From a virus (lineage: Duplodnaviria; Caudoviricetes): DNA of 64,000 bases. Under the pieces are notes generated by a model. That model ran no database searches, had not been told where the DNA came from, and worked only from the letters and a program-made list of their open reading frames with translations. The stretch's first letter is position 1; every line of letters begins with the position of its first letter. Location of the stretch: positions 1 to 64,000 of IMG/VR virus record IMGVR_UViG_3300010965_000005; one strand, 5' to 3'. This document shows, one piece after another, positions 26,100-44,533 of this stretch. Made by a program: the position numbers and the translations under genes.

Positions 26100-26632
26100 T
26101 CAGGGATAGGCATGGCTTCATACCCCTTCTTGATCTTCGTCAGATCATTGCCGTTGTTGTCGCGGCCAAACTCGCCCGGCTTCGACGCGGAAAGCTGCTC
26201 TTCCTTGGCGCGGACCTGAAGGCGGGCGCGGCGCTTTTCGGCGTTGCGGGCCTCCTCAGTGATGGTCAGCGGGCGTTCCATCAAAACCATGCCCTTGCGG
26301 GTGATCATGGCATCCTTGTAGCCCAGCGGCATCATTTCGGGGTGGCGGGACGCGGGGACCATTTCCCAACCCTTGCGCTGCAACGCCACTTGGTGTGCGG
26401 GGTCTTCCGCACCGAGGACGAGTCGGGTCTTCCACTCGTAGGACCAGCCGTCGGGGATGATACCCGGCTCCACAAAGAATTCATCCAGACCGTCGTCTGT
26501 GTCCGAGTGGCCGCGAAGTTCTGCGGCCCGCCGCTCGGCGCGCTCCCGTGGGGTTTCCTCGGTGGTCATAGCAGCCCTGACACTTGGGCGAAGCTTCTTC
26601 TCAATTGGCTTAAAGTCATCATTTTCCATCAT
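26096..26632 (-). CDS. conserved head-module protein
   Basis: P.GWSYEW, L.RKGWE.VP..RHPE, G.VLMERP; lies between scaffold and decoration genes. Confidence 0.75.
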   Translation of the reverse strand: MMENDDFKPIEKKLRPSVRAAMTTEETPRERAERRAAELRGHSDTDDGLDEFFVEPGIIPDGWSYEWKTRLVLGAEDPAHQVALQRKGWEMVPASRHPEMMPLGYKDAMITRKGMVLMERPLTITEEARNAEKRRARLQVRAKEEQLSASKPGEFGRDNNGNDLTKIKKGYEAMPIPE

Positions 26633-27459
26633 TTCATTTTACCTTCCTTGATCAAGTCAATTTTGTTTTTGGCGTAAGCCTCTGGGGTCATCCCCATGTC
26701 GGCTGCCGCCTCGCGCTCTGCCGCCGTCAGCCTGACCGTGTTCTTGCTGTTGGAACCCGTGCCACGACTCACTGGGGCAGCCGCTGGGGCGGCGTCACGG
26801 CGCTGGGTGACCTTGGATGCGAACTGATCGCCAGTGTCATTGCTGGGGGCGGCCTTAGACACTCCCAGCTTGCTCTCAATAGCCGCGAAGTATGCGGGCG
26901 TGTCTGGGGCGATACCATCATCAACCGCGTCTTCGTGCGCTCTGATCATCTTGCGGTTCAGGCGGGGGTCGGTGACGAACTGGGGGTTATTGCGGACCCA
27001 ATTGGCCGAGATCGGCGTCAGCCGCGCCGCGAAGGCCTCCACGGGGTCGGCGGGCGTATACTGCGGTTCGGGAGTCTTCGGCTTGGAGTTCATCGCCTCA
27101 AGGCCGTTGCGAAGCTGGAGCAATTGCGCCGACTTCTCGCCCATCAACTGCTGAATTTCAGCCGCGCCAGCGAAGTCCTGATTCTGCATGGCAATCTGGT
27201 AATTGCTCTTTAGAATCTCGGCGTCCCGCGTGACACTGTCAATGGCGCTGGACACCAACTGGATTTCGGTGTCGTCCTTTTCGCTGCTGGCGTGGTGCGC
27301 CCGCTTTTCGGCGGCAATGCGAGCCTGACGCTCAACGTCAATCTGGCGCTTCAGTTCAGAGATTGACTCTTGAATGTCGGGGACTTGGATTTCCTCGGCC
27401 TCGGCAATTTCATCATCAACGATAATTTCGATTTCTTCATCCATGTCGTTCACCTTCAA
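26629..27459 (-). CDS. scaffolding protein
   Basis: Acidic N-terminus, long coiled coil, W...N, and C-terminal VRLT..E...A..MGMT.E.YAK.K helix-turn-helix. Confidence 0.75.
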   Translation of the reverse strand: MKVNDMDEEIEIIVDDEIAEAEEIQVPDIQESISELKRQIDVERQARIAAEKRAHHASSEKDDTEIQLVSSAIDSVTRDAEILKSNYQIAMQNQDFAGAAEIQQLMGEKSAQLLQLRNGLEAMNSKPKTPEPQYTPADPVEAFAARLTPISANWVRNNPQFVTDPRLNRKMIRAHEDAVDDGIAPDTPAYFAAIESKLGVSKAAPSNDTGDQFASKVTQRRDAAPAAAPVSRGTGSNSKNTVRLTAAEREAAADMGMTPEAYAKNKIDLIKEGKMK

Positions 27460-27845
27460 TAAACGGAATCAGGGTGTGGGGCGCGGCCTTTGATGCTGAT
27501 GTCGTCAAAGATTCGGCACAAGACGCCATTTACGGTAATTGACCAGCCGTCAGACGGGCGGAAGATCAGCCATTCGTGGTCTTGGAACGTCATCCCCGTG
27601 AACCAGTTGCCGTCCTGCTCAAAGGCCAGCGGGCCACGCTTGATCAGAAGCCCGACTTTGGACTGGTAGCGGTCTTCATCAAGGTGGTCAGCGGTCAGGA
27701 TTAAGCCAGATTTGGTCTTTTCTGGCCGTAAATAGACAGCAAGAAGGACTTGATTGTGGAACAATTCGATTTCCGAAATGTCCCCAATTTGTTCAAGCAG
27801 GGCTTCCTTGGGGTCTTTTTCGTGGCTCATGGGCATATGGGGCAT
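27456..27845 (-). CDS. groES: GroES/Cpn10-like co-chaperonin
   Basis: L.H.QVLL......KTKSGLIL.........G.L.K.GP.AF (mobile-loop TKSG motif). Confidence 0.8.
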   Translation of the reverse strand: MPHMPMSHEKDPKEALLEQIGDISEIELFHNQVLLAVYLRPEKTKSGLILTADHLDEDRYQSKVGLLIKRGPLAFEQDGNWFTGMTFQDHEWLIFRPSDGWSITVNGVLCRIFDDISIKGRAPHPDSVY

Positions 27846-27854
27846 TGGTAATCC

Positions 27855-28061
27855 TTACATGGTCTTGTTAATGTTTGTGGAAACCTCGTCGCAAAGCGAG
27901 ATCACCTCATTGAACGCGGAAATTTTTCCGACGGATTCACGATATTCTTCAATGGTCTTTATGGCAAGTCCGCCAGCCATGTTGCCGATGATCTCGGCGC
28001 AGCGCTCGATGATAAGTTTGAGGAGTTCCCGCTCAAAGGCGGTGCTGACGGTCGTGATCAT
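27855..28061 (-). CDS. hypothetical protein
   Basis: AGG SD; helical EEYRESVGKI.AF family. Confidence 0.65.
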   Translation of the reverse strand: MITTVSTAFERELLKLIIERCAEIIGNMAGGLAIKTIEEYRESVGKISAFNEVISLCDEVSTNINKTM

Positions 28062-28085
28062 GGATAATCCTAATTTTCATGGGGT

Positions 28086-28136
28086 GGGGGCCAGTTTTTG
28101 TCTGGCCCCCGTAAGCCGAAGGGAGGGGTCGGCTTA
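28086..28136 (-). terminator. two tandem hairpins after the 456-aa gene
   Basis: TAAGCCGA...TCGGCTTA and GGGGGCCAG...CTGGCCCCC. Confidence 0.55.
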
Positions 28137-29504
28137 TTTCTTGAGGTCTTTGTTCATCGTCTCACCGTAGGCATCAACCTTTTCGAGGCGAGCCTTGCCA
28201 CCGCCAGCGCCGCCAGTGATTGGGTATGCCACGCGGCCACCAGCCTTGCGGCCCATCATGGGCGGGCCACCTGCGGGTGGCATGGGTCCAGCGCCAGCAG
28301 CGCCAGCCAGAGCCTGCTGCAAGCCTGGGGGAAGGGACATGTGAGCGGGTGGAGGCGCAGAGGGCATGGGAGATGGTGCAGGCATCGGTGGGCGCATCAT
28401 TGGGGGTGGCATAGCGCCGCCGCCCATCGGGGGCATGGGTGGCATACCGCCCGCTGGGGGCATAGCGCCAGGCTTCTCGGCGTTGTGCGGGAAGATGTTG
28501 ATGCTGATGTTGCTTTTGCCGACCTTGCCACCCGTGGCGCGTGACGTGCGGGCCGCGTCCTCAAATGCCTTGGCGGTTGGCGCACCCTTCTCGCCAGCCT
28601 CACGCATTTTTTCACCGCGCTTGCGCTTGGCGTTGATGTTGGCATACAGACCGCCGCCACGCTTCATGGCCGAGCCGCCGCAAGCTTTGCAGTCACAGCC
28701 TTCTTCGTGGGCTTCCTCGGCCTTGCCGCCTTTTTTGTAACCACGCGCCATTGGTGCCATTTGCATCATTGGGGCTTGCATACCCATGCCGCCGCCGCCC
28801 ATCTTTGCGGTGCGACCCCCGTCTTTCAGGCCCTTCATGGATTCCTGCTTGTCGTGCTTGTCGTCAGCCTCGGATGCTTCCCACTCGGCCATCGTCATCT
28901 TGCGCTTGGCAGCCAGCTTCTTGTCCTGCATCTGGTCCTTGGCCGAACCTTCAAACTTTTCAGCCTTGCCGCCGCGCTTGTATACGCCAGACATCGTCTT
29001 GTCTTCCATGTCCGGGCGAGTCTTGGGCCGTGGGGAGGTCCGTGGGGCCATTTGCGAGCGGTAATTATCTGGCTGCTCGGTGAGATCAGCAAAGCCCTTC
29101 ATCATTTCGGCTGTGATCGGCTGGCCGTATTGATTCAATACAACTTCCTCGTCGGTGCCACCATTTGCGCGCTTCAGGCGACCGCCCTTGGCGAACCCGC
29201 CGACGTGCTTGATGCCTTCGCGTTCCTCGTTGGCGTCCTTGACGTTGCGGTTGACCAGAGCATCAGCGTAGGCCTTGCCACCCGACTGGCGGGGCTTGCG
29301 GCCTGCGTGGCTCATGGATTCAGCGCCATCGACCTTGCCGCCGACTTTGAATGCGCGGCGGGAGACTGGGCGAGCGCCCGTCTTTACGTCTGCGTTCAAT
29401 GGCTCGGATGGGGTCCAAGTCGAAGCATCAACTTTTTCGGAAGTGGCTCCAGAGAGGCGCTTGGCCTTCTCCTTCATCGCCTCGCGTAGGCTTTTGGCGT
29501 CCAT
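28134..29504 (-). CDS. low-complexity Lys/Gly/Met/Pro-rich protein with about 11 xxxGG motifs (putative internal virion protein)
   Basis: FKVGG, RQSGG, FAKGG, RANGG, YKRGG, LKDGG, AKMGG, YKKGG, MKRGG, RATGG, RKAGG. Confidence 0.8.
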   Translation of the reverse strand: MDAKSLREAMKEKAKRLSGATSEKVDASTWTPSEPLNADVKTGARPVSRRAFKVGGKVDGAESMSHAGRKPRQSGGKAYADALVNRNVKDANEEREGIKHVGGFAKGGRLKRANGGTDEEVVLNQYGQPITAEMMKGFADLTEQPDNYRSQMAPRTSPRPKTRPDMEDKTMSGVYKRGGKAEKFEGSAKDQMQDKKLAAKRKMTMAEWEASEADDKHDKQESMKGLKDGGRTAKMGGGGMGMQAPMMQMAPMARGYKKGGKAEEAHEEGCDCKACGGSAMKRGGGLYANINAKRKRGEKMREAGEKGAPTAKAFEDAARTSRATGGKVGKSNISINIFPHNAEKPGAMPPAGGMPPMPPMGGGAMPPPMMRPPMPAPSPMPSAPPPAHMSLPPGLQQALAGAAGAGPMPPAGGPPMMGRKAGGRVAYPITGGAGGGKARLEKVDAYGETMNKDLKK

Positions 29505-29587
29505 TTTTACAATCCTCTGAGGTTACACGGCGTCCCGTTTGTGCTTTGCATTGTATACCGAAGTCAGGGACAATGCACGATCAATGT

Positions 29588-29797
29588 TCACATCCCCACC
29601 GTCAGCCGTAGAGCCTTGTCAACAGCATGGTGCTTATGTTTTTTCTTGCTCCTGTAATCAGGATGTGGATGGCGAGACGGGGTCTTAGTCTGGTAAGCAA
29701 CATCTGAAGGGACATAGTCATGTTCCTGATCTGTCAGGTGCTTTTCGTGATTGTGAAACTGCGCGTAGAACGAATCCACATCAAGTTTTTTGTCCAT
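29588..29797 (-). CDS. His-rich hypothetical protein (possible -1 frame extension to 29523)
   Basis: TAATG-coupled to the gp88-like gene; ends VDKALRLT. Confidence 0.6.
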   Translation of the reverse strand: MDKKLDVDSFYAQFHNHEKHLTDQEHDYVPSDVAYQTKTPSRHPHPDYRSKKKHKHHAVDKALRLTVGM

Positions 29798-31074
29798 TAC
29801 GATTTCCCTTCATTGTCTTTTAAGGAAAGCTGCTTTCCCTGCGGTGCAATCCGAACTTCAAAGTTGGTTGGAATTGTTGGGCCTTTCAAAGGATTACCAT
29901 TCTTGTCCAGTCCTTGGCTTGGGCCTCTTTGATATGTACCATCTGGGTTCTTCAAGGCTTTTGGATTGTAGCGAACAAAGAAGCCTTTGCTTTCTTTGGT
30001 GGCTCCTTCAACCGTTCCAGTTGCCTTCTTGTTTTTCAAACCAACGATGACGCCGTCGGTGCCTTCGGGCTGAATATCGAGGGGTCGGAAATCGTGCTTG
30101 TCGCCGTTGACAACCTTGTATTTCTTTCCAGTCTCTTCATCAACGACAACCTCTGGCAAATGTTCTTTGTGGGAGAATGCCATTGCCACGTTGTCGCCGC
30201 CATCAAGGCGACGGCGCATCTGCTTCCAGTTCGTGTGTTCATTGGACACGGCAATTTCTGGATCGGAAACACCAGTTGAGGAATATGTGTAGTGATGGTT
30301 TGCAGCAACAGGGTTTGAGTTGTTCTTTGTGTAATCGTAAAAACTGACATCAGGATGCGCTTCTATCAAAGACTTGTGGACCAATGGGTTGATGTCAGAA
30401 AGGGTGTTAAGGCGTACCCCAAGGTGGTTTCCATTGCGCGCTGCTTCTTCCTTTGCTCGGTCAATCTCGTCATACAATCGAACAGCAAAAGCTTCTGGTT
30501 CACGCATCATTGCGTTTGTTTTCTTTAGGCTGTTCAGGCGAGGCCCTTTGAATGCCGTCAAATCTCGACCGCCGCCAACTTTGAAATAATTGCCGCTGGT
30601 CTTTCCAAGGCACTCGTCCTTGCATGACGCGCTGTTGGGGCAGGTTGAGAATTTTCCTTCCTGATATGCTGGAGCGAGCGCCAATCCAGTTGTCTCAACG
30701 CCACGACCGTCTGGCAGCTTTACTGGTTCCTCGTCGCCATATCCTGTTTCGGACTTCATAAGCTTGGCGTTCTTCGTAAACATTGGCGCAGCGCCTTTTC
30801 CAGAACTGCTTGGGACGTGCTGCGCAAGCCTGCGGTCTGCGGCCATTGCATTCTGAATGCGCTCTTCTCGATTTAGAGAAACATGGTTTGCAATTGCCGA
30901 ATCAAAAGCGTCTTTTAAGCTTCTCATCGTGGGTGTCTGATCGTGCGTTTGAAAAACACCAACCTTTCCCTTTGTCGGCGCTTGAGTTCCTTGTGGGGAA
31001 ATACTGAAACGCGGCGTAGGCGCTTTCGGCATTGGTGATGTCAGGCTCAAAGCCTTGTTTACGATGTCATCCAT
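29797..31074 (-). CDS. Gene-product-88 (GP88) family protein
   Basis: TCP....CK..CL..SG, RLN.LSDI, FYDYTK, Y.YS, N.AMAF, GD.HD.R.LD, G.IVGLK.K. Confidence 0.8.
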   Translation of the reverse strand: MDDIVNKALSLTSPMPKAPTPRFSISPQGTQAPTKGKVGVFQTHDQTPTMRSLKDAFDSAIANHVSLNREERIQNAMAADRRLAQHVPSSSGKGAAPMFTKNAKLMKSETGYGDEEPVKLPDGRGVETTGLALAPAYQEGKFSTCPNSASCKDECLGKTSGNYFKVGGGRDLTAFKGPRLNSLKKTNAMMREPEAFAVRLYDEIDRAKEEAARNGNHLGVRLNTLSDINPLVHKSLIEAHPDVSFYDYTKNNSNPVAANHHYTYSSTGVSDPEIAVSNEHTNWKQMRRRLDGGDNVAMAFSHKEHLPEVVVDEETGKKYKVVNGDKHDFRPLDIQPEGTDGVIVGLKNKKATGTVEGATKESKGFFVRYNPKALKNPDGTYQRGPSQGLDKNGNPLKGPTIPTNFEVRIAPQGKQLSLKDNEGKS

Positions 31075-31075
31075 G

Positions 31076-34000
31076 TCATTTCCCCTTGGGCTTGAGGGAA
31101 CCTATAGCAGACTTCCCATCTTTCGTAAATCCGCGCGTGAGGGCGAGGGCTTTGCTGACCGATCCGCCCGTGGCATACCCTGGGATCGTCATGGCGCTCC
31201 GTATGTCAAAGACGTTTGCTGGCTCGATGTGCCAATCCTCGTTGTCCATGCGGAAATTTAGGCCGTATCTTGCGGCATTTTCCTGCGCCCACTTCAGGGC
31301 CTCGTCGTCGGCGTAGGACAAGTCAGCAGCCAAACCGTAATTGTGGGATGAAGTCCCAGGGCGGGCGACCCAATTGTCCCTTACTTCAGGGTCTGGATAC
31401 TTTGCTGCTGCGGCCTCCCAAAGTTCTTGCTGCCGCTCTGGTGTCCGATAGCCAGACGCCACGGATATTTTGCCTGGGGCCTCCGCAATCATCCTGTCAA
31501 TGGCGCTCTGGAATGGGGCATACATGCCACTTGGCTGATACCCCTGCTCAGGTAGGGGAATCATGCCAGACGGCGTGTGGCCCTCGCTGGACGCGCTTGG
31601 CGTGGGTTCTTCGGGCTTGTTCTTTAACTCGTTGACCGTGTCCATCAGGGAGCCGAGGGATTGGCTGAAACCCCCCGCAGGCCGCTGCTGCTGGCGGGGG
31701 ACAATCGGGGCCACCGCCAACTGCCTGATCTGGATCGGCGCAGCCGGAACGTAGCCCATGACTGGCCCACCCGTGGCTCTGGTGACGGTGCCGCCGTATT
31801 CGTATTTGTTTAAGATGCTGACCAACTTATCATCGTAGACAACGTAATTATTGGTTCCGTCGTTGGCCTTAAATCTAGCGCCAGAAACTCCTCTATTAAG
31901 AAGGTCTTTTTCGCGGATTTTTCCGCTATCATACAACTCCCTAAAGGTATTATGTTGAGGGAAATCCAAAAAAGCATTTTTTACAATTTCGCTTTGTTGC
32001 GAAATAGGGGTATCCCAATCGGCAAAAGTTGACGGATGAGCATTTATTTTCACCTTATACATATTCGCGCCAAGTTTTACATCTTCACTGCCACGCGACC
32101 TTAGTTCGTCAATGACGTTCTGGTAATCGCGCCTTGCGGAAAACGGAAGTTCCTTGGAGCGGGCAAGAAGATCAGATTCTGCATCACTAGCAACGTCAGC
32201 AAGTGTTCCGCTTTTGCCTTGATCGTGTGCAAATTTCCATACAGATTCATAAGCATCATCCGACAAGCCAGCGGATCGCCCCTTTTTACCTCCAATAATG
32301 GGACTCGCACCTAACGCCTTGAAATGTTCTGCATTCTTCTCATTTTCTGAAAAATATAGCCCTTCGCTGAAAGCAGACGGCGCACCAACGCCAGTGCCGA
32401 CCTTACTCATATCAAACTTGTCAAAGCTGTGTGGGCTGCCGTGGTAGGCTGTGATGCCGTCCTCGTCGACTTCGCCACCATCCTCGCGGCGGATGCGGGG
32501 GTCTGTGGGGTCAAACGCCTCGGCCTCGGTGTGCTTGATGGTCTTGGGATCAAATGCCACGACCTCAGAGATGCCATTGGGGAGATGCCCGTGGTCAGTC
32601 TTGACGACAACGCCATCGTGGCCGCGTCTTTGCATTTCAGCCATAAACGGCTGGATATGGTGTGACTGGAGATTGTCCCACGGGTTCAATTCGTTTTTCT
32701 CACGCATGATTCCCATAGACTGCAAATCACGCAGGGTGCTGTGCGATTTGGTTTCACTCGAAACGTCCCAAACGTAGGGGTTTTTCAAGGCAGCGTGGAG
32801 CGGGCCGATAACAGCGCCCCTCCCCATTTCGTCTGGGTCAGCGTAACCTTCAGCGTTGCCCCTGAGTGGCGTCAGGTAATGACCTCGGCCATAGAAGCCA
32901 GCATCCCGCGCGCCAAGTTTGGCGTTGTCAAACGCTTCAAACTCTTTGGACTGCGTTGTCCCATGATACAGGTCAAGCGGTGCGCCGCTTTCGTTTTGCA
33001 GGCTCTCGTGGACACCCTGAAACATGGGTGCATTTGCTGCGCCACCATCTGCCTTGGTGATTGCTTGTTGCTGAATGGCGGATGGGTCTGTGACAATGTA
33101 AGAGTGATCTGGAGTGACGGAACTGGTCATCCGCCCCTCTTCCATGTCTTTCCATGTCGGGCCAGCGTCAAACTTGTTCATGTAGCGCAGGGCTTTGATG
33201 TTTGACTTGGACAGAGCATTGGAAAAGAGAACGTTCTGGGCCTTCATCGTCTCGTCAGGGTGGCTGATCCTATCTTCAATGTCCTGAAGGCCGTCATAGG
33301 TCTTGTTGAACGTATCAGAATCAATCTTGCCAGCCCCGTGAAGATGCTCAAGAATTTCATAGAAATCAAATCTGTTTGATGCGGCAGGGATGTCAACGAT
33401 CTGCTCTGGGCGCGCATTGATCTTGAACGCCTTTGGCGAAACCCTTTCCGCCATGTCTGGGCGACCCATCAGAGATTTGACGGCTGCGTTGTGTGCCAAG
33501 GCTGGGTTTGCTGCAAAGTGAATGCCAACATCGCGGGCGCTGGGACGAAACTGACCGACAATGTTTTCTGGGGAAGCGTGGTAGGCGGTGATGCCGTCAA
33601 CCTCACCGCCATCAGCGCGTTCAGTTGCGGAACGACCGTTTGCCTTGATAGCTTCATCCATATCTGCGAGCAGCGCCTTGATGGACTTGTCGCCACGTAG
33701 AAATGCTGCGGCTGCACGGTGGTTTCCGTCTCGCAAGTGGTGAATGCCGTTGATGCGCTCCACGAACGGAACGCCTTCTGCGGGGTTCCTGATCTTCGAT
33801 TTCCCGATTGCGCCAACATCTGTGACGATCTTGTCCATCGGCACGTCTTCGACCTTAGCCCCTGCGTGTGCCTTGTTGATCGCCACTCGCAACGGGTCGG
33901 CGTAGACCGATTTTGCTGGGGTCATGGACATGTACGGATATTCCATGCGGGGCAGCGGCGAAGCCACAGCTTCTTCAGGCGGAACACCGTTGCGGTTCTG

Positions 34001-34195
34001 TCCAACATGCGGCAGGGCGTTGATGGCATCTTCCACCTTACCCCCATCACCATGGACGGCGCGGGGAACGTTGGGCAGGTATTTGGACGGGGCGATCTGG
34101 CCGTCGGCGCGGGATACCGCCGTGGTGTGGCGGTTCTTTTCAAGCATACCACCGAGTGTCAGCTTCGCCGCGCGGATTGCCTTGTCTCTGTCCAT
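31076..34195 (-). CDS. polyvalent protein: ParB/Srx-like + three ADP-ribosyltransferase-like domains + M15 Zn-peptidase
   Basis: LRDGNHR; YHAS..GIHF; YHGT..GFYGRGHYLT..SEVVAF; YHGS..GLYFS..NYVVY; SGYRT..PGTSSHNYGLAAD..EDWH. Confidence 0.8.
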   Translation of the reverse strand: MDRDKAIRAAKLTLGGMLEKNRHTTAVSRADGQIAPSKYLPNVPRAVHGDGGKVEDAINALPHVGQNRNGVPPEEAVASPLPRMEYPYMSMTPAKSVYADPLRVAINKAHAGAKVEDVPMDKIVTDVGAIGKSKIRNPAEGVPFVERINGIHHLRDGNHRAAAAFLRGDKSIKALLADMDEAIKANGRSATERADGGEVDGITAYHASPENIVGQFRPSARDVGIHFAANPALAHNAAVKSLMGRPDMAERVSPKAFKINARPEQIVDIPAASNRFDFYEILEHLHGAGKIDSDTFNKTYDGLQDIEDRISHPDETMKAQNVLFSNALSKSNIKALRYMNKFDAGPTWKDMEEGRMTSSVTPDHSYIVTDPSAIQQQAITKADGGAANAPMFQGVHESLQNESGAPLDLYHGTTQSKEFEAFDNAKLGARDAGFYGRGHYLTPLRGNAEGYADPDEMGRGAVIGPLHAALKNPYVWDVSSETKSHSTLRDLQSMGIMREKNELNPWDNLQSHHIQPFMAEMQRRGHDGVVVKTDHGHLPNGISEVVAFDPKTIKHTEAEAFDPTDPRIRREDGGEVDEDGITAYHGSPHSFDKFDMSKVGTGVGAPSAFSEGLYFSENEKNAEHFKALGASPIIGGKKGRSAGLSDDAYESVWKFAHDQGKSGTLADVASDAESDLLARSKELPFSARRDYQNVIDELRSRGSEDVKLGANMYKVKINAHPSTFADWDTPISQQSEIVKNAFLDFPQHNTFRELYDSGKIREKDLLNRGVSGARFKANDGTNNYVVYDDKLVSILNKYEYGGTVTRATGGPVMGYVPAAPIQIRQLAVAPIVPRQQQRPAGGFSQSLGSLMDTVNELKNKPEEPTPSASSEGHTPSGMIPLPEQGYQPSGMYAPFQSAIDRMIAEAPGKISVASGYRTPERQQELWEAAAAKYPDPEVRDNWVARPGTSSHNYGLAADLSYADDEALKWAQENAARYGLNFRMDNEDWHIEPANVFDIRSAMTIPGYATGGSVSKALALTRGFTKDGKSAIGSLKPKGK

Positions 34196-36490
34196 TTACT
34201 GCCCCTGTTTGCGGAGTTGCATTGCCAGTTTGACCGCATCAGCGGCATGATCACGTTCCTGCATGTCGCGCTCGTGCTGCATCCGAACCGCATCATTCAT
34301 CTGGTCACGATCCATCCGCATTTGCTCAACCCGCAAATCCTTCTCGCGGTCGAGGTCGCGGTTCTGGTCGTTAATCTGGTCACGCTTCATGGCAAATTCC
34401 ATCTGGCGGGCCTTGTTTTGCTCCGCCGCCATCTTGGATGGGTCAACCGCAGCCTGCGCGGGGGCCTGAGCGCCCTGTGATGCCTGCGCCCGCACCATGT
34501 CAGCCTGAGCGCGCAGAGTGTCTGCATCGGCCTTCTGGTGGGCAATCTTGACGTCCTCAAGGCCCTTCAGCAATTCAGGTGGTGGCTGCCGATCCTGCGC
34601 CGATTTCAGGAACTGTTCGGGGTTTGACCAGCCAATGGCGCGCAACGCCGCCTTATCAACGGCATCACCGTCAAATGCGGACGGGTTAGCGGCCTGCAAC
34701 TGCTTCAGCGCCATGATCTTCATCACGCGCTGCGCGTGGCTGGACGTGTTCGGGTCGGCCTGCGGGACCAGTTCAACGTCATTCAGGGCCTGCATAAACA
34801 GTTCCTCATTCCACGCGATGGTGGGCCTGCGGTTCCGCTGCCAGAAACTTTCGGGATGCTCGCGGAAGCATTTCAGCAGCAGCGAGAATTCCTCGGCCTG
34901 CGCGCTGTGCATCCGCTTGTGGACGGCATTCATAATCTTGGTGGCCTGCTCGATCATCGCCAGCGTGGTGCCGACGGGCGCGTCGGAGCGTCCCTCACCC
35001 ACTTGGGCCTCAGATGTCCCGCCGACACGCATACCAGTCTGGGACATGTTCTCCACCAGCGCCATCAGTGCCTGCGACGGCTCCTTGTAGGGCAGCGGCA
35101 TGACAGCCTGATTGATTGGCTGCCCGCCCGTCTTGATCTGGGCCGATCCGCCTGGGGGAATGCGGAAGATGTTGGTGTTTTGGCGCGACCCCGTGTCGCT
35201 GACCAAGAACCCAGGGAAGTTGGCATACATACCAGCGTCCAGAAGTTCGCGCCACGCGGCGGTGATCGCGTTGGTGGTGTTGCCGAGGATGTGCAGCAGG
35301 CCGATGTCGTAGAAGCCTAGGCCTGGGACAAACGTATATTTGACGAAGTTCGTGCGGGCTTCGGGCAGATCGGCGGTGTCCTGATCAAAGTTGCGGGTGA
35401 TCGACAGGATTTTGCGCGACGACACGTCGATGGTCACGCGGTATGGGATTTCGAGGCCGCTCTTTTTCTTTTTGTATTTGTGTTCAAAGCCGCTGATGTC
35501 CAGTTCGCAGTAAACCTCGTAAATCTCGCGGTCGCGGTCATCAGGGTTTGACGATGTGGCGGTGATGCCCTGCTGCGCGCTCTTGGCGTCCTGCGCGGCA
35601 TCGGGGGTGACCTCATTGGGCGTGGACAGGTCGGTGTCACTGTAGACGCCGATGATCTGGAGCCGCTTGACGGTGCTGGGGCGCATATAGACGCGGTGCG
35701 TCACGCGCTTGGCGTTGGACAGATCGGTGGCGGCGCTGTTGACGATCAGATTGTCCGCGTCAACGCTCTCGCTGACGGGGCGGTTCCGCAGCGGGCAGAA
35801 GTAAATTTTCTTGAACGACGTGCCGCCGAAGCCCAGCATCAGCAGCATCCGATCTGTGTCGGGGTAGTATTCGCGCGCCGTGCTGGTCAGGTAGTGGTTC
35901 ATGTCCTTTTCGAGGGCGTTGGCGATCTCGTCACGCTGGACGGTGCTGCCGTTGGCGTCATCGCGGATTTTGACAGGGCCATCGGTGGGCAGCAATTCTG
36001 AACGCGCATTCGCTTGGAACCGCAGGACAGCCTCTTGCAGCAGAGGGTGGCGGACCTTGGACATGCCCTCGATGGGTGCGCCATCTGACGCGCCGTTGAG
36101 GCCGGGGATTTCAATTTTGAGGCCCAGCAGCTTGATGCCCTGCGCGCGGTCCTCGATCCACTCGCTGCGGCTTTCGAGGTCATCCTCAACGCCACGGATT
36201 AGGTCATCGGCAATGTTTTGGAGTTCGGTGTCGTCAATTTCATCAACCAGATTGTCAAACCACCCCATCGGGGGGCGCTTTTCGTTGTCGGGGTCTTGGA
36301 TCGGCTTGCCATCAAGGGACAGGGTGATCGAGCCGTCACCATGTTCAATCTTGAGGATCGCGCCGTCTTGGGAGATTTCGGGAATGTCTTCCGGCTCGGC
36401 GTCGTCATGCTCAACGGTCACGTCCATAGGGCCGATGGCCGCGTCGGCCTCGTCTTCATGCAATCGAATATTGGGGTTCAGTCCTGACAT
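34196..36490 (-). CDS. portal protein (P22-like)
   Basis: 764 aa; HPLL.EAV.RFQA.A..EL.P..GPVK, G..FKK.Y, FV.Y.F.PG.GFY..GL, LPYKEPS..L, long helical C-terminal barrel; first large gene after the terL cluster. Confidence 0.85.
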   Translation of the reverse strand: MSGLNPNIRLHEDEADAAIGPMDVTVEHDDAEPEDIPEISQDGAILKIEHGDGSITLSLDGKPIQDPDNEKRPPMGWFDNLVDEIDDTELQNIADDLIRGVEDDLESRSEWIEDRAQGIKLLGLKIEIPGLNGASDGAPIEGMSKVRHPLLQEAVLRFQANARSELLPTDGPVKIRDDANGSTVQRDEIANALEKDMNHYLTSTAREYYPDTDRMLLMLGFGGTSFKKIYFCPLRNRPVSESVDADNLIVNSAATDLSNAKRVTHRVYMRPSTVKRLQIIGVYSDTDLSTPNEVTPDAAQDAKSAQQGITATSSNPDDRDREIYEVYCELDISGFEHKYKKKKSGLEIPYRVTIDVSSRKILSITRNFDQDTADLPEARTNFVKYTFVPGLGFYDIGLLHILGNTTNAITAAWRELLDAGMYANFPGFLVSDTGSRQNTNIFRIPPGGSAQIKTGGQPINQAVMPLPYKEPSQALMALVENMSQTGMRVGGTSEAQVGEGRSDAPVGTTLAMIEQATKIMNAVHKRMHSAQAEEFSLLLKCFREHPESFWQRNRRPTIAWNEELFMQALNDVELVPQADPNTSSHAQRVMKIMALKQLQAANPSAFDGDAVDKAALRAIGWSNPEQFLKSAQDRQPPPELLKGLEDVKIAHQKADADTLRAQADMVRAQASQGAQAPAQAAVDPSKMAAEQNKARQMEFAMKRDQINDQNRDLDREKDLRVEQMRMDRDQMNDAVRMQHERDMQERDHAADAVKLAMQLRKQGQ

Positions 36491-36557
36491 CGGCGTCCCT
36501 CGGATATAATGGCTGCGCCCACGTTATCAGACGCAGCCACGAATATCAACGAGAAGC

Positions 36558-36809
36558 CTAATTGCCCTCGATCTGGAGGGTGACGGCGGCTTTTCTCTTC
36601 TTGCCGCTCACCCAAGAAGTGTTGGTGGAGGTGGTATCGCGGCCCTCACAAACCACGACAAGGACATAGTTGATGTTGCCATACGAGCCGACATCAGCGG
36701 CAACACAGCCATCGGGCAATTGACGGTTGATGGTTTCCAGCTCTCGTCTGTGTTCTTCTTCAAGGCAACCAGACAGCGCCAACACGGCGATCAATAATAG
36801 TTTTTTCAT
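36558..36809 (-). CDS. small lipoprotein
   Basis: MKKLLLIAVLALSGC lipobox. Confidence 0.7.
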   Translation of the reverse strand: MKKLLLIAVLALSGCLEEEHRRELETINRQLPDGCVAADVGSYGNINYVLVVVCEGRDTTSTNTSWVSGKKRKAAVTLQIEGN

Positions 36810-37024
36810 TCGGTTTTCTCCAGTTCAAGCAAAACTTTGCGAAAATCTTCGTATGTAAGATCACGCAAAACCCACTGCCGCATCATATCCAGAACGGCGA
36901 TTTCGGCCTTATCCAGTTTGGCTTTAAGGCTTTTGATTTCATCGCCCCTCCACTCATGGATAATACCAAGACATATCCCGATCCCCAAAGCGGCGATTAA
37001 CATCAAGATGTAAGGTAACGTCAC
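36806..37024 (-). CDS. membrane-anchored hypothetical protein
   Basis: GTGA coupling; N-terminal TM segment. Confidence 0.6.
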   Translation of the reverse strand: MTLPYILMLIAALGIGICLGIIHEWRGDEIKSLKAKLDKAEIAVLDMMRQWVLRDLTYEDFRKVLLELEKTE

Positions 37025-37503
37025 TCTTTCCCCTCCAGTTCGGCAAGAACGGATCGGGCTTCTTCGATGGGCCAAGCAGGAACTTTATTATACACGGAGT
37101 GACGGATTTGAGCGTCAATTGTCATACCACCAGCACCCAGTGAAACCATTTTGCCTTCATCACAGGCGTCTGTCACTAACCGCAAAGCATCAATAGCCTT
37201 AGCCAGCTTGGCCTCTGCTGTTTCTGTGCGGGCCAGCATCAAGGCAAATGTGCGGTCACGCTCGTCTAAGATAAACTTTCGATCCCTCACCAACTGCTCA
37301 ATGCGGTCTGCCATGACTTGCGCCGCTTTAAGCATCACACCAACGCGCTGCCTCCCCAAGAAATCAAGGTTGCTCATGCAGGAACATCCGCCATTCGTAT
37401 GCACCCCCACGGTCTTTGCAATGACGCAATATCCATCACTGCACCCGCCGTTGAGGGCCGCTTGTTGGTCACGATATTGCTGGATCAGTTCTTCATCGGT
37501 CAT
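37021..37503 (-). CDS. hypothetical protein
   Basis: ATGA coupling; GCSDGYC/GGCSC and ADRIEQL motifs. Confidence 0.65.
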   Translation of the reverse strand: MTDEELIQQYRDQQAALNGGCSDGYCVIAKTVGVHTNGGCSCMSNLDFLGRQRVGVMLKAAQVMADRIEQLVRDRKFILDERDRTFALMLARTETAEAKLAKAIDALRLVTDACDEGKMVSLGAGGMTIDAQIRHSVYNKVPAWPIEEARSVLAELEGKE

Positions 37504-37820
37504 TTCTTCTCTCCGATCAGGTCGAGGATTTCTTCTTCCGCATCAGCGCAATAAGTCCAACCCTGCATTAGCTTATACGCCTCACGCAGCGCAGCTTCAC
37601 GGATGGTAGCAGGGTCAACAGCACGGGTGTTCCATTCTGCGTCATCCCGCTCTTTCACCAACGCCTCAATGCGGTCGGCGGCTTGCTTTGTGATTGTAGG
37701 GATCATTTCATAGTCTGCACCGACCATCTGTTCTTGGTCGTAATCTTTTGTGACACGTCCTAAGTATTGCAGGGTTTTAATCAGTTCTTCATCGTTAAGC
37801 GCAGCTTCACTGCTAGTCAT
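37500..37820 (-). CDS. hypothetical protein sharing its C-terminal cassette with the Lar-like gene
   Basis: WNTRAVDPATIREAALREA...LIGEKK. Confidence 0.65.
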   Translation of the reverse strand: MTSSEAALNDEELIKTLQYLGRVTKDYDQEQMVGADYEMIPTITKQAADRIEALVKERDDAEWNTRAVDPATIREAALREAYKLMQGWTYCADAEEEILDLIGEKK

Positions 37821-38206
37821 TTCTTCTCTCCGATCAGGGTAAGGATGGCGGCAGCGACATCGCCAGCACCGTCTGACATCCCTTGATACTGAGGATCAGC
37901 GCGGTGCGGGGAGTGAATGTTTTTGTATTCAGCCCACCACTCAGATGACAGCGCCTCGGCCACAGCAGCAGCCTCACGCAGCGCATCCTCACGGATGGTG
38001 GCGGGGTCAACAGCGCGGGTGTTCCATGCGGCGATAGCCTGATCCATAGTGGGAAAGTAGCCATAGCCCAGTGTAAAGATTGCCCCGTGACATTCAGGGT
38101 ATCGGCAGGACACAGCATAGGAATCCCTGCCATCGTAATCTGTCTTGCAGATCGTGTTCTTGTCGCCCCCGCAGAACGGGCATGGCTTTAGGTCTGGCTG
38201 GGTCAT
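37817..38206 (-). CDS. lar: Lar-like restriction alleviation protein
   Basis: LKPCPFCGG...C...C...AIAAWNTR; start refined to 38206. Confidence 0.7.
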   Translation of the reverse strand: MTQPDLKPCPFCGGDKNTICKTDYDGRDSYAVSCRYPECHGAIFTLGYGYFPTMDQAIAAWNTRAVDPATIREDALREAAAVAEALSSEWWAEYKNIHSPHRADPQYQGMSDGAGDVAAAILTLIGEKK

Positions 38207-38538
38207 GCCAATGCTCTCACGATAGCCAAGAACAGCGCGTCCTTCTTGCGCTGAAACTCTGGCAAATCTGCATACGGGACCATGCAGGGGTGGGTCTTTG
38301 CCACGGCGTCCTTGACCTCGCCATACACCCATCCGTCCGCGATCTTGTCTGCCATCCAATTGCTGTGCATATCTTCTGGCGTAGCGTCTGGGTATTTCAG
38401 CGCGTGTTGAACGCCGTTGATGGCGCTGTCAACTTGCCACTGGGGAGCCTGACCCCAGTGCAACGGGAATGAATCGCCATTTAGGTGACACCACACTTTG
38501 TTGGCCTCGTGGCATATGATTGCGATGTTTTCGATCAT
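38203..38538 (-). CDS. RyR (ryanodine-receptor repeat) domain protein
   Basis: H..WM..K...GW.YG..KD...KTHPCMVPY..LPE.Q..KD. Confidence 0.8.
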   Translation of the reverse strand: MIENIAIICHEANKVWCHLNGDSFPLHWGQAPQWQVDSAINGVQHALKYPDATPEDMHSNWMADKIADGWVYGEVKDAVAKTHPCMVPYADLPEFQRKKDALFLAIVRALA

Positions 38539-38792
38539 TTCTTTTCCCTCAAGATAGTATTGCGCCGTTTCTTCAGAACTTCCCGCATGGTGCATCGCAA
38601 CATCAACTGATATTTGATGCGATTGACCCGATCTGTGTCACCCGCCCATTGCGCGTCCTCTTTTGCGGCAACCAGCGTGTCTATCACCTGCGACAGGCTG
38701 TTGGTTTCGCGGTTGATGTCGTCAATGTCGTACCCGACGCGGCCCAGTAACGACACCGCCTTGGCCCTCATGTCCCTACTGCTGGTTGCCAC
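38535..38792 (-). CDS. hypothetical protein
   Basis: Fills the operon; ATGA coupling downstream; start uncertain. Confidence 0.5.
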   Translation of the reverse strand: MATSSRDMRAKAVSLLGRVGYDIDDINRETNSLSQVIDTLVAAKEDAQWAGDTDRVNRIKYQLMLRCTMREVLKKRRNTILREKK

Positions 38793-39027
38793 GGGCAGCC
38801 CTCAGTCCGCTGATGCGGCGCACGAGAATGCGCGCCATGCAGTATAGGATTCGGATTTCCTTGTGGATTTTCCATTTATCCGATGCCTTGGCGGCGTAGG
38901 AAATTTCACGCTCCTGATTGTTGATCTGAGCCTTGACGTTGAGGTGCCGCGCGAGCAGCGCCCTAACATCGTCTTGCAATTCACCCAAACGCTGCCTTGC
39001 CTCGGCGGTCATAGATTTACTTGGCAT
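38776..39027 (-). CDS. hypothetical coiled-coil protein
   Basis: Fills the operon after the Endo VII gene. Confidence 0.5.
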   Translation of the reverse strand: MPSKSMTAEARQRLGELQDDVRALLARHLNVKAQINNQEREISYAAKASDKWKIHKEIRILYCMARILVRRISGLRAARGNQQ

Positions 39028-39781
39028 CTTCAAACACCGCCGAGACGGGCATATCAGCCTGATTTTGATACTTGCCGTCATAGTATGCGTTGGCGGATGT
39101 CTGGTGAAAGATAACCTGTGCTATGCCAGCGCCCGCTGGCTGGTCGGATAATTCTTCAATCATTTTCGCAGCTTTCCTCATTACATCTGGGTTGTCCTTG
39201 AACGATCCAAGTCCCCTGTTGCAGTGGGCGCACAAGATAAACCTGACGCGCCCACTTTTGTGACAATGATCAGTATTCCAGCCCGCCTTTGCGCCAGCGT
39301 CCTTGGATTCACAAATTGCGCACTTGCACCCTTGCGCCTCAAACATAGCCTGCCATCCTTCTGGAGTCATGCCATACTTGGCTTTCAACATAGACCTGCG
39401 TTTCTTCTCTGGGTCTGTATTTTTTCTTGCGTAATCACGAGAATATTCTCGGCTTTTTTCAAGGTTTTTGTAATAGTGCTTTTTTGACCTTTCCCTGCCA
39501 CTTTTTGCTTTATCCTCTTCACTCATGCGCGGCCTGCACTTTCTTCCATCTGGCTTGCCTATGCCCTCGCGTTTTGCTTTGCGGCGACCTACGGTGCGCT
39601 TTAAATGGCAGGATACACACCAAGGGATATGCCCACGAATAAGTTTTGGGTTTTTATAGAACCCGCATTCTGGGGAATTAACCCCGCAGTTGGCGCAGGT
39701 GTACTGTGCGTACACCCGCTTTTCATTTTCAATCAAAGATGGCTGGGGTGGGATCAGTTGATTGTCCTTGATATTTTCCAT
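39017..39781 (-). mobile_element. Endonuclease VII-family (HNH) homing endonuclease fused to a displaced dcd C-terminus
   Basis: YG.T...W..M...Q..KCAIC......DHCH.SG.VR.ILC..CN.GLG.FKDN, then PAGAGIAQVIFHQTS... Start uncertain. Confidence 0.85.
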
Positions 39782-40223
39782 TGTAAGATGCCCGTTCTGA
39801 TGTCTGGTGAAAGATCACTTGAGCTATCCCCGCTCCAGCAGGGATGTGTAGACCTTCCCGACCATGATATACAAGTTCAAGGGTAAGTCCACCGCAAAAT
39901 CCACTTTCGATCACGGTGTTGAACACCGACAACCCCTGACGCGCCCATGTGCTTTTGTCATGCACCACGCCCACCAGATTTGGCGGCATCTGGAACTCTT
40001 CTATGGCGCTGGCAAGGGTGAAGTCGCCTTGTGAAAATTTACCGTCTACAATCACCCCTGACAGGTAGTCTTTATCTGGCTTGTAGAACACAACATCCTG
40101 CTTGATGCGGATGTCGTAACCAGCCTCGGACAGGCCGAAAGAGACGCCATGCTGGCGCATCTTGTCGTTGATCATGCCCTTGATGGGCGCTACCTCAAGC
40201 AGGTGTCTGCCGTTGATGATCAT
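39729..40223 (-). CDS. dcd: dCTP deaminase / trimeric dUTPase-family protein
   Basis: GLSEAGYDIRI, LASAIEEF.MP, V.DKSTWAR.G, TVIE.G..G.LTLE, IAQVIF, Y.GKYQ.Q. Confidence 0.9.
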   Translation of the reverse strand: MIINGRHLLEVAPIKGMINDKMRQHGVSFGLSEAGYDIRIKQDVVFYKPDKDYLSGVIVDGKFSQGDFTLASAIEEFQMPPNLVGVVHDKSTWARQGLSVFNTVIESGFCGGLTLELVYHGREGLHIPAGAGIAQVIFHQTSERASYNGKYQGQSTDPTPAIFD

Positions 40224-40483
40224 TGCTTCAGCCCTTCCCGTGCGATGGCAGCCATGCGCTTTACTGTGGCAGTGCTGGTGGGCTTTTCCTCGTCAATGAT
40301 ACGTTGCAGGGCAATGTTCAGCTTGTCGGCGCGATCCAGCAGGCGGTGGATTTCATCTACGTGCCGTACGATCTCAAAACCCATTCCTTGGGTCACTTCC
40401 GACAGGTGGTCCTTGTCGCGGTTAAGTTTGACCGCCTCTTCACGCAGCCGCTTGATTTCTTTCCACGGGTTCCAGATCATCAT
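40220..40483 (-). CDS. hypothetical coiled-coil protein
   Basis: AGGAG SD; ATGA coupling to dcd. Confidence 0.7.
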   Translation of the reverse strand: MMIWNPWKEIKRLREEAVKLNRDKDHLSEVTQGMGFEIVRHVDEIHRLLDRADKLNIALQRIIDEEKPTSTATVKRMAAIAREGLKQ

Positions 40484-40502
40484 TAACTCCTAAAAAATAT
40501 CC

Positions 40503-40613
40503 CTGACGGTCCCCGACACGCCACAACGGCAATATCGTCATCAGGTCGCCACGGCATCAGCGAGACGCCGTGCGCGAATATCTCATATTATGGCTGTGGG
40601 GTCAACATATCAA
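40503..40613 (-). promoter_or_regulatory. internal promoter (TTGATA-N17-TAATAT) followed by a two-hairpin leader
   Basis: The only sizeable gap in this gene run; stems CACGGCGTC/GATGCCGTG and CGATATTGCC/GGCGTGTCG. Confidence 0.45.
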
Positions 40614-40619
40614 TCAGGC

Positions 40620-40817
40620 CTAGGCCGCGTCTTTCAGGGTCTGGGTCACGCTGTGGCCGCAGCTTGGGCATTTGTGGCATGGGATAACCTTCCCCGGCCC
40701 CCCAGCAGAGAACGTGCTGGCGCGTGTATCGTTGGGGAAATCTGGCATCCCCCCGACGTAGGTTTGGGCAGTGGCGATGCCCAGAACCATGTCAGTCTTG
40801 CACTTGCGGCAGATCAT
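40620..40817 (-). CDS. small Zn-finger-like protein
   Basis: CRKC...CHKCPSCG. Confidence 0.65.
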   Translation of the reverse strand: MICRKCKTDMVLGIATAQTYVGGMPDFPNDTRASTFSAGGPGKVIPCHKCPSCGHSVTQTLKDAA

Positions 40818-41158
40818 CTTGGCACCTCAACGATTCTGACACTTGGGACGCCATCCTTGATGTCCAACTGGATGATACCAAGGGCATCGCCAGAATATGC
40901 GCCCTTGAAGCGGTAAATGTCATCACGCCAGAATCCTGTCGGCCCAGTTGGATAGATCGCCGCCCAATGTGAAACCGTCACAGGGGCGGGCTTGCCACGG
41001 TATGCGAGCCGACCGATCCATTCTGGAAGGAAGGTTGTTTTCCAGCCCTCAGAGTTATAAACTTCCCACCCGTGCGGCCACGCCATCAGGGATGCCCGTT
41101 CCTCTTCTGTCAGCAATCCGTATGGGACACGATTCGTTGTTGGGTCAAAGTAACTCAC
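40814..41158 (-). CDS. hypothetical protein, tandem paralog B
   Basis: FDPTTNRVPYGLL...WPHGWE...YRGKPAP. Confidence 0.75.
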   Translation of the reverse strand: MSYFDPTTNRVPYGLLTEEERASLMAWPHGWEVYNSEGWKTTFLPEWIGRLAYRGKPAPVTVSHWAAIYPTGPTGFWRDDIYRFKGAYSGDALGIIQLDIKDGVPSVRIVEVPR

Positions 41159-42267: not shown

Positions 42268-42276
42268 CAGATAATC

Positions 42277-44446: not shown

Positions 44447-44533
44447 TGCGCGGCCTCAGTGCAGAAAGCAGACACGTCGCCGCGCTGCCGTGGATTGCGC
44501 CAACAAACGCGGCTCTCACGGCTTACCATGCGT

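Follow-up and report, generated by a model that had tools for sequence, protein, structure and literature searches.

The window, by which we mean the whole 64,000-nucleotide stretch of viral DNA analyzed here, comes from a podovirus-like phage of ~60 kb. The record is a fold-back assembly artifact, which is why the gene described below is present twice, and its mirror copy was dropped as a genuine second gene; the record contains 45.3 kb of phage sequence, and ~15 kb is missing. Genes run in the order TerL, portal, array gene, GP88-like gene, GG-rich protein, candidate scaffold, and major head protein (Table 1). Homologues of the array protein (P0001) include tape-measure and internal virion proteins, and these relatives, together with the position of the gene, suggest that the protein probably travels inside the virus particle and enters the host by injection. 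No orphan cassettes matching its modules were found elsewhere in the window, and no immunity gene accompanying the array was evident.

Table 1. The array gene, its parts, and neighboring features in the window
Feature	Positions	Strand	Residues	Remarks
Array gene P0001	31076-34195	-	1039 aa	
Portal gene	34196-36490	-		phrog_1216, E 2e-27; directly upstream of array gene
TerL	42277-44040			
Mirror copy of array gene	56388-59507	+		Product of fold-back assembly
N-terminal tag	34154-34195	-	1-14 (MDRDKAIRAAKLT..)	Common to nearly all arrays; 96/117 homologues
38-aa spacer	34040-34153	-	15-52 (..APSKYLPNVPRAVHGDGG)	Bounded by GG15-16 and GG51-52
Likely ParB/sulfiredoxin-fold module	33605-34039	-	53-197	Closes with seam RADGG
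ART-like module 1	33041-33604	-	198-385	Closes with seam KADGG
ART-PolyVal module 2	32474-33040	-	386-574	Closes with seam REDGG
Module 3	31790-32473	-	575-802	Closes with KYEYGG
Double seam (YEYGG-TVTRATGG), then Pro/Gln-rich linker	31511-31789	-	803-895	
M15 (VanY-type) peptidase module	31163-31510	-	896-1011	Closes with seam YATGG
C-terminal tail and stop codon	31076-31162	-	1012-1039 (SVSKALALTRGFTKDG..LKPKGK)	Kept at end of most arrays

A sequence-only reading had proposed that P0001 is a polyvalent protein whose autonomous modules are bracketed by a diglycine motif (here, the GG seam), and our analysis bears this out. It had also counted five enzyme modules, and these stood: a likely ParB/sulfiredoxin (Srx) fold, a diverged ADP-ribosyltransferase (ART) fold, a canonical ART-PolyVal domain, a third module that is partly ART-like, and an M15 peptidase.

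The first module likely adopts a ParB/sulfiredoxin fold and may belong to that superfamily, though it gave no Pfam hit. Its core (~96-188, with DGNHR at 156-160) was modeled with a pLDDT of ~85 to 95. Foldseek matched it mostly to ParB, Srx, Noc, and KorB (probability ~1, E 5e-3 to 3e-2, TMt 0.58 to 0.65), VIA gave a Z score of 6.8 to sulfiredoxin, and the ESM Atlas gave aa 52-196 only weak leads, namely, unnamed viral clusters at 0.88 and, at rank 18, a ParB_N cluster. The same module occupies other array positions in two relatives (L027 and L060). The preceding 38-aa spacer also turns up at internal positions in other arrays (family F2, '.20' segments).

ART-like module 1 is a diverged ART fold, and it behaves as such rather than as a member of ART-PolyVal (PF18760). 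It gave no Pfam match and so falls below the ART-PolyVal gathering cut-off; hhalign against ART-PolyVal modules returned 84.7% probability (E 7e-6, 143 columns), with Ser at the consensus Glu position. VIA Z scores ranged from 6 to 7.7 (7.5 to diphtheria-toxin homologues, 6.7 to tankyrase, 6.1 to ParT). Foldseek with the two-domain model yielded nothing at E <= 0.001, and the ART fold of this module surfaced only in VIA-align, at middling Z. Module 2 is the canonical member, with a PF18760 match over aa 401-559 (E 5e-25; 89.3 bits, or 69.5 for the segment alone, versus a cut-off of 31.2), the residues H411, Y440, and E544, and 117 homologous clusters. Module 3 scored 29.0 bits to PF18760, under the 31.2 cut-off and with the match limited to its N-terminal 40 to 45 residues, and hhalign to ART-PolyVal gave 92.7% probability over 40 columns only. 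Like module 1, it lacks the Glu. Its homologues include the standalone phiGT1 gp5.

Module 3 had been thought AT-richer than its surroundings, and it is: GC3 is 0.43 overall and 0.17 to 0.47 within the module versus 0.6 to 0.8 in the flanks. The right edge of the low-GC block is KYEYGG, and its left edge lies ~25 codons inside the module, so at least one exchange bypassed the seam on the left side. Beyond it comes the double seam, whose intervening 8-aa piece recurs in many arrays; aa 803-895 had no secondary structure in a second AF2 model, itself of low confidence. The M15 module matches VanY (PF02557) over aa 907-989 with 46.8 to 50.5 bits versus a cut-off of 25, matches D-Ala-D-Ala carboxypeptidases in the PDB at E 2e-8, and retains both motifs intact (SxHxxGxAxD at 949-958, ExxH at 986-989).

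All seven heptamers previously reported were found where claimed, beginning at residues 48, 193, 381, 570, 798, 806, and 1007. P0001 has three further GG pairs (residues 15, 635, and 841), and GG by itself shows no enrichment (10 observed versus 7.8 expected, P=0.25). The pattern [ADGTNSY]GG.[VAI] occurs 7 times versus 0.82 expected, a count reached in 0 of 2000 shuffles, and A.GG.[VAI] occurs 4 times versus 0.19. The seam peptide that closes each cassette is roughly [K/R/H/Y]-A-x-G-G-x-[V/I/A]. Across related arrays, A.GG.[VAI] was counted 144 times versus 9.8 in shuffles, a statistic inflated by the shared descent of these sequences, which are not independent.

If the motifs mark joints between domains, they should coincide with predicted domain boundaries, and for the three seams that could be modeled, they did. 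The AF2 model of aa 40-400 (pLDDT 81.7) fell below 50 only at aa 40-49, 89-97, 188-197, and 383-400; seams 196-197 and 384-385 lie inside such segments, and the 40-49 segment ends just before seam 51-52. These three seams lie in low-confidence linkers that are probably flexible. The second model (aa 560-1039) had a mean pLDDT of 49, too poor for the boundaries of the last four seams or for fold searches. When full-length P0001 and the module segments were put into one MAFFT alignment, many segments were wrongly placed against distant GG motifs, and this alignment was left out of folding.

To see how the array varies, we gathered 80 related loci by their portal and compared the portal-linked genes of 53 non-redundant relatives. 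These have their N and C termini in common and differ in module content; all 27 complete arrays had distinct module strings, drawn from 42 families. Arrays cut at the motif gave 264 segments in 61 families of consistent length, among which F4, F5, F8, and F19 are large and probably multidomain without an internal seam. Of the HSP ends, 32% lay no more than 4 aa from a GG, versus 9.5% for random positions. At the DNA level, homology with close relatives stops within 1 to 3 codons of GG motifs, with blastn breakpoints at aa 13, 52.3 (in five relatives), 200/385.7, 382/574.3, 801.0, and 1008-1016. Homology with L003, L005, and L058 stops at aa 13; it picks up again at aa 801.0 in L003 and at aa 1010-1016 in L005, L007, L011, and L058.

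Individual relatives illustrate the extent of the exchange. L003 has 93% nucleotide identity in the portal region and 99% in the portal protein, and from the array it has only the termini, the spacer, and M15 in common. L005 carries a module 91% identical to ART-like module 1, with shared DNA running from aa 200.0 to 385.7. The array protein P0068 shares with P0001 only ART2 (98.5%) and M15 plus tail (92%), in blocks that run from seam to seam, and in P0005 two of the modules stand in reversed order. Split arrays end 3 to 4 aa after a GG in 36 clusters; in the loci inspected (L001, L042, and L040), the next open reading frame overlaps by ATGA and holds the C-terminal tail. Related phages therefore exchange, reorder, duplicate, and split cassettes at the GG seam, and the proposed plug-and-play array, with swaps exactly at GG, holds to within 1 to 3 codons.

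The seam is conserved independently of what it joins. Of the 117 ART2 homologues, 113 retain GG at the left edge and 115 at the right (97 to 98%), while the domain cores have diverged to 55% identity and adjacent residues and modules vary. Standalone proteins distantly homologous to the ParB-like and ART-like-1 modules are without GG flanks, which makes the seam a property of the array and not of the folds. Likewise, M15 homologues in the unrelated phages RcZahn, RHph_I20, and vB_ThpS-P1 have no systematic GG flanks, so the seam is not a property of the M15 fold.

It had also been suggested that the GG linker is a recombination joint, with the junctions at residues 193 and 570 similar in DNA. 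The likeness is real: 22 of 23 nucleotides agree. However, this stretch encodes DGITAYH, the start of both ART-like modules, and its source is the homologous ART N termini and not the GG codons, which differ between the two junctions at synonymous positions. In general, the synonymous sites of the seam's Gly, Ala, and Val codons are variable, with a mild bias towards GGT-GGC. A DNA recombination site is ruled out by this variation, and the seam must therefore be kept as protein. The joint survives as a place of exchange between cassettes but not as a DNA-level recombination signal.

Taken together, we read P0001 as a polyvalent effector array whose seams are hinges and recombination joints and which is loaded into the capsid and ejected, and we put the probability of this whole explanation at roughly 0.78. 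Judging from gene position and relatives, the protein would most likely be packed into the capsid beside the portal and expelled into the host along with the DNA. A conserved N-terminal helix plus spacer and a conserved C-terminal tail frame a variable run of autonomous cassettes, here a putative ParB/sulfiredoxin fold, one canonical ADP-ribosyltransferase, two diverged ADP-ribosyltransferase-like modules, and an M15 cell wall peptidase. The seam is the place where cassettes are swapped, reordered, duplicated, deleted, or split among related phages, through which the lineage carries a combinatorial repertoire of putatively injected enzymes on a near-constant virion backbone. Since it is conserved as a peptide and not as a DNA site, the seam must act as protein; it probably serves as a hinge that keeps neighboring domains independent and marks the only joints where recombinants survive. 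It may in addition be recognized by a protease or a packaging partner. Seeing the seam as a hinge may not be the full account, since Ala at -2 and Val/Ile at +2 are conserved and a pure hinge would require neither.

A possible but on balance unlikely alternative is that P0001 is a true polyprotein, in which a phage or host protease cuts the GG seams and frees the enzymes in the procapsid or after ejection. Such cutting would be akin to the GG-X processing that adenovirus and African swine fever virus (ASFV) apply to their core polyproteins, or to the way T4 removes capsid-targeting peptides. It is consistent with a seam that is conserved as a peptide, has specific residues flanking GG, and sits in low-confidence linkers that are probably exposed. 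Motifs of the same type also occur in further proteins of this phage that are candidates for internal or ejection roles (456, 191, 646, and 1248 aa). Natural split arrays have termini within 3 to 5 residues of a seam, so the modules function as separate polypeptides. Autoproteolysis through an embedded metallopeptidase (MPTase) domain has been suggested for polyvalent proteins (Iyer, Burroughs, Anand, de Souza, and Aravind 2017, PMC5512222), whereas the array protein here is without an MPTase. Moreover, PHROGs and Pfam scans of the 28 further open reading frames of the window found no protease gene between the portal and capsid genes or elsewhere in the 45.3 kb present in the record, from which ~15 kb is missing; a Mu-like_Pro match (E 0.35) was too weak to carry meaning. 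Also against cutting, the head module includes a candidate scaffold protein, and some scaffold-using phages do without a maturation protease in head assembly. GG is frequently followed by Arg or Lys, which are destabilizing at the N terminus of proteins in bacteria.

A more specific and rather speculative version of this alternative is that the seam is read by a conserved phage factor, such as the SprT-like zinc metalloprotease that relatives conserve upstream of TerS, making the array a polyprotein magazine that is loaded by its tags, cut at its seams, and fired into the host. However, nothing ties the SprT-like protein to the array, and SprT-like proteins are not known to be specific for GG. 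If true, this would be a bacterial-virus counterpart of what adenovirus and ASFV do to their core polyproteins by GG-X processing.

Alternatively, though improbably, the seam could be a packaging or binding handle that docks to the portal, inner capsid, scaffold, or DNA, with proteins of many seams retained and ordered. In favor of a handle, the motif is concentrated in proteins of the head and ejection modules, and the terminase, portal, candidate scaffold, and lysis genes have almost none of it. The 456-aa protein, two genes downstream of the array, consists of little beyond a string of such motifs, and the seam is kept even at extreme C termini, where only 3 to 4 residues follow and it links nothing. 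However, such C-terminal seams can be explained as remnants of split arrays, and targeting would fall more plausibly to the terminal helix tags (DKAIRAAKLT and VSKALALT). Quite improbable is a functionless seam, with GG linkers tolerated and the motif homogenized by repeated cassette recombination as hitch-hiking microhomology: breakpoints do coincide with the seam, the codon bias is there, and M15 homologues of unrelated phages do without the flanking motif, but the varying synonymous sites indicate that DNA identity is not what is maintained, and GG persists beside diverged ART2 cores with adjacent linker residues free.

The preferred reading, an effector array with hinge-like seams, has several precedents in part. 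Phage polyvalent proteins, for which delivery with DNA was proposed and mosaicism noted (Iyer et al. 2017), likewise place many unrelated effector domains on one polypeptide beside the portal-terminase module, and ART-PolyVal, ParB-like, and cell wall peptidase domains are typical of their set. Such proteins carry 2 to 15 distinct effector domains on one polypeptide in this phage context; P0001 has five modules, with TerL and portal upstream and the major head protein downstream. That study describes no junction motif (linkers and glycine have 0 occurrences each) and proposes processing by embedded MPTase domains; here, by contrast, the exchange joints are mapped to 1 to 3 codons, and conserved terminal tags frame the array. 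We did not find the GG seam in the literature on ejection proteins, cargo proteins, and polyproteins, and a search with the seam peptide itself gave noise only.

In T4, Alt and the internal proteins are packaged in the head and injected, and their capsid-targeting sequence is removed by the gp21 prohead protease. As proposed for the array, Alt is a head-borne ADP-ribosyltransferase that enters the host with the DNA, and a short terminal peptide is thought to direct packaging. PMC9026906 gives background on T4. The T4 proteins, however, are single-domain and cut at L/I-x-E by the prohead protease, whereas P0001 has many domains and a GG motif, with no protease found. The MuF polymorphic toxins of temperate phages (Jamet et al. 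2017, PMC5576092) are also encoded next to the portal and join a conserved carrier to swappable toxic or enzymatic domains. They have one C-terminal toxin, whereas the array has many cassettes; the MuF domain (SPP1 gp7/Mu F) is absent, as aa 1-195 gave no Pfam match with the threshold relaxed to E 10.

Polymorphic toxins carry pretoxin motifs, VENN in CdiA and PxxxxDPxGL in Rhs. As in the array, a short conserved peptide marks the recombination joint for cassettes in these systems (Zhang et al. 2012, PMC3482391). In CdiA and Rhs a lone C-terminal toxin follows the only joint, and the systems include orphan cassettes and immunity genes, whereas here the motif stands at every boundary and order is free. 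The adenovirus protease and pS273R of ASFV are clan CE cysteine proteases that carry out GG-X processing of virion core polyproteins. There, too, xxGG recurs along proteins destined for the capsid interior, but those unrelated viruses have a known protease, whereas the phage motif is known from sequence and no such protease was found.

The general design, polyvalent proteins delivering anti-host enzymes, is thus published, and the seam grammar is new: tags conserved at both ends enclose the array, and a single short seam peptide connects all of its cassettes. On a near-identical virion backbone, each genome examined has its own selection and sequence of putatively injected enzymes. The seam may be cut, bound, or a hinge only, and if it is a processing signal, phages would be handling injected effectors as polyproteins in a way not described before. 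Of the 42 module families, most are without a Pfam match, and the seam, being a rule for cassette boundaries, is therefore also a rule for finding new effector domains.

With the portal as bait, we retrieved 80 viral contigs and took from each the gene that follows the portal gene. The array proteins collected in this way are between about 600 and 1921 aa long. They have in common the first ~13 residues (MDxDKAIRAAKLT) and usually also a C-terminal tail (..ALALTR..LKPKGK), and everything between differs. Cutting 53 nonredundant proteins at the seam, the short Gly-Gly peptide bounding each module, gave 264 segments in 61 families of consistent length. No two of the 27 complete arrays have the same string of modules, for which 42 families supply the parts; this supports the sequence-only reading of the gene as a plug-and-play effector array. 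Within these arrays, 13 different modules stand to the left of ART-PolyVal and 14 to its right.

The sharpest evidence for exchange at the seams comes from DNA-level breakpoints. The GG linker had been proposed as a recombination joint, and DNA homology with close relatives does break at or near the GG motifs. For the 1039-aa array protein under study (P0001), blastn breaks fall at residues 13, 52.3 (five relatives), 200.0/385.7, 382.0/574.3, 801.0, and 1008-1016, and its GG pairs lie at 51-52, 196-197, 384-385, 573-574, 801-802, and 1010-1011. Protein HSP ends lie ≤4 residues from a GG three times as often as random positions. For a relative with a 99% identical portal protein (L003), the shared parts of the array are limited to its termini, spacer, and M15 block; another array protein (P0068) has in common with P0001 only the ART-PolyVal block (98.5%) and M15 plus tail (92%), seam to seam, and a third (P0005) carries two modules in the opposite order. 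Of 117 cluster representatives holding the ART-PolyVal module, 113 have a GG at its left edge and 115 at its right, while the residues flanking it and the adjoining modules are variable. In a distant homolog of 747 aa (P0182), ART-PolyVal is fused directly to a portal protein (Phage_portal_2, PF05136). The slot behind the array, held here by a GP88-family gene, is itself replaceable: DNA homology with four related loci (L005, L007, L011, and L058) skips this gene, and 1.5-3.1 kb of different sequence stands there.

All seven GG heptamers previously reported in P0001 are present at their residues. Plain GG is not enriched in this protein (10 observed versus 7.8 expected); the pattern [ADGTNSY]GG.[VAI] occurs 7 times versus 0.82 expected, a count reached in 0 of 2000 shuffles, and across the array family A.GG.[VAI] occurs 144 times versus 9.8 in shuffles. 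The DNA similarity noted earlier between two junctions is real, but it does not lie in the GG codons, which differ at synonymous positions; the near-identical stretch (22/23 nt) codes for DGITAYH, with which two ART-like modules homologously begin. Also real is the AT-richness of module 3 (GC3 of 0.43 versus about 0.6-0.77), whose low-GC block has its right edge at KYEYGG and its left edge ~25 codons inside the module.

Two other accounts of the seam were rejected. It does not belong to the folds: it is absent from distant standalone homologs of the ParB-like module and of ART-like module 1, and M15 homologs in unrelated phages are not flanked by the motif. Nor is it a DNA site, since in 144 seams the third positions of the Gly, Ala, and Val codons vary. 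The seam is therefore a feature of the array as peptide, and selection on the protein maintains it.

Pfam names two modules of P0001, ART-PolyVal (residues 401-559, 89 bits) and VanY/M15 (residues 907-989, both catalytic motifs present). Module 3 scores 29.0 bits against ART-PolyVal, under the cutoff of 31.2 and over its first 45 residues only, and profile comparison confirmed homology for the N-terminal part only (92.7%). For residues 40-400, a full HMMER scan of 1.84 billion representatives found only 62 clusters, whose matches keep to module borders; the model folded from that alignment has a mean pLDDT of 81.7. Domain 1 (about 96-188, with DGNHR at 156-160) matches ParB/sulfiredoxin with a Foldseek probability of about 1, TMt of 0.58-0.65, and a VIA Z of 6.8, and is thus predicted to have that fold. 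For domain 2 (ART-like module 1, 198-382), structural alignments with ADP-ribosyltransferase folds span the full domain (diphtheria-toxin homologs, Z 7.5; tankyrase, 6.7; ParT, 6.1); it also aligns with the ART-PolyVal profile (84.7%), with Ser in place of that family's Glu. In this model pLDDT drops below 50 only at residues 40-49, 89-97, 188-197, and 383-400; seams 196-197 and 384-385 lie inside such segments and 51-52 just after one, in agreement, for these three seams, with the proposed match of domain borders to motifs. For residues 560-1039 the model was of too low quality for use. The modeled ART-like module 1 (P0001 residues 197-379) also aligns with residues 1418-1601 of PDB 9k3a chain B, a large protein of the cyanophage A4 pre-ejectosome, with a middling VIA Z of 7.7 over 134 residues; if the match is real, an ART-like domain would have been resolved inside a capsid. 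The pre-ejectosome section of the paper on 9k3a describes no such domain.

The GG linker had also been proposed as a cleavage site, which we consider doubtful. Consistent with cleavage, specific residues are conserved on both sides of GG, in modeled seams with low-confidence, probably exposed linkers, and further proteins of this phage that are candidates for an internal or ejection role carry the motif as well. Natural split forms point the same way: 36 of 117 clusters end 3-4 residues past a GG. At three loci with split arrays (L001, 8190-8230; L042; L040), the first ORF has its stop 3 residues beyond a seam (..HARGGVAK*) and the next ORF overlaps by ATGA, opens with the next module, and holds the C-terminal tail. 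In 16 related loci, the region upstream of TerS encodes a conserved zinc metalloprotease of SprT-like type (69-99% identity, HEMTH motif, C-terminal Cys4 ribbon), a candidate trans-acting processing enzyme; its gene position is beyond the end of this record. However, nothing ties this protein to the array, no protease gene was found in the record, including the stretch from portal to capsid genes, and the residue right after GG is often Arg or Lys.

ART-PolyVal was defined by Iyer et al. 2017 (PMC5512222), who proposed that polyvalent proteins are delivered together with the DNA and that embedded MPTase domains carry out autoproteolysis. P0001 shares the overall design of these proteins; linkers and glycine are nowhere mentioned in that paper. 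P0001 is functionally analogous to MuF toxins, to T4 Alt and internal proteins, and to polymorphic toxins with their pre-toxin motifs, but it is not a member of these families.

The portal gene beside the array (phrog_1216) encodes 764 aa, and the array ORF starts one base past its stop. The record is a fold-back assembly artifact of a 45.3-kb fragment, because positions 26583-45291 and 45292-64000 are perfectly complementary about a center at 45291/45292, all 90582 (2 x 45291) bases of the IMG/VR record form one perfect head-to-head palindrome, and the center is a (TA)n run that is its own reverse complement. IMG/VR classes this palindrome as "inverted terminal repeats." The "second copy" of the array gene at 56388-59507 is thus an artifact, and all genes right of 45291 are mirror copies. 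Contigs of relatives measure 55-63 kb, so ~15 kb is missing from the record and the true genome size is probably ~60 kb.

Features of the array region, motif-bearing proteins, and the candidate protease
Feature	Position	Strand	Length	Remarks
Array ORF (P0001)	31076-34195	minus	1039 aa	
GP88-family gene (PF17338)	29797-31074	minus	425 aa	follows array
Lys/Gly/Met/Pro-rich protein	28134-29504	minus	456 aa	two genes downstream of array; no Pfam family
Ejection protein	6936-10682	minus	1248 aa	FASGGVAG twice (aa 312, 539), beside tail-fiber-like repeats and lysozyme-like domain
191-aa protein	11183-11758	minus	191 aa	RRADGGEV and VAAGGEYV
SprT-like zinc metalloprotease (PF10263)	L038:2344-2952; L040:3892-4500; 14 other loci; MW202675.1 32571-33209		212 aa	
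Helix-like tag	31079-31162; 34154-34195; 31030-31074	minus		also in L011, L018, L036

The 456-aa protein contains 23 GG versus 9.3 expected and nine seam-type motifs with short charged peptides between them; it may be an internal core protein in which the seam motif is put to use. As the 1248-aa and 191-aa proteins carry it too, the seam-type motif is not confined to the polyvalent gene. Several termini also bear a tag that looks helical, [DS]-[IV]-V-x-K-A-L-x-L-T. In the array this tag comes after the last seam, at the C terminus, and it opens the next gene (MDDIVNKALSLTS); the array N terminus (DKAIRAAKLT) resembles it, and in L011 and L018 it stands at both ends of the 1054-1059-aa gene in the slot after the array; it may be a capsid-targeting signal.
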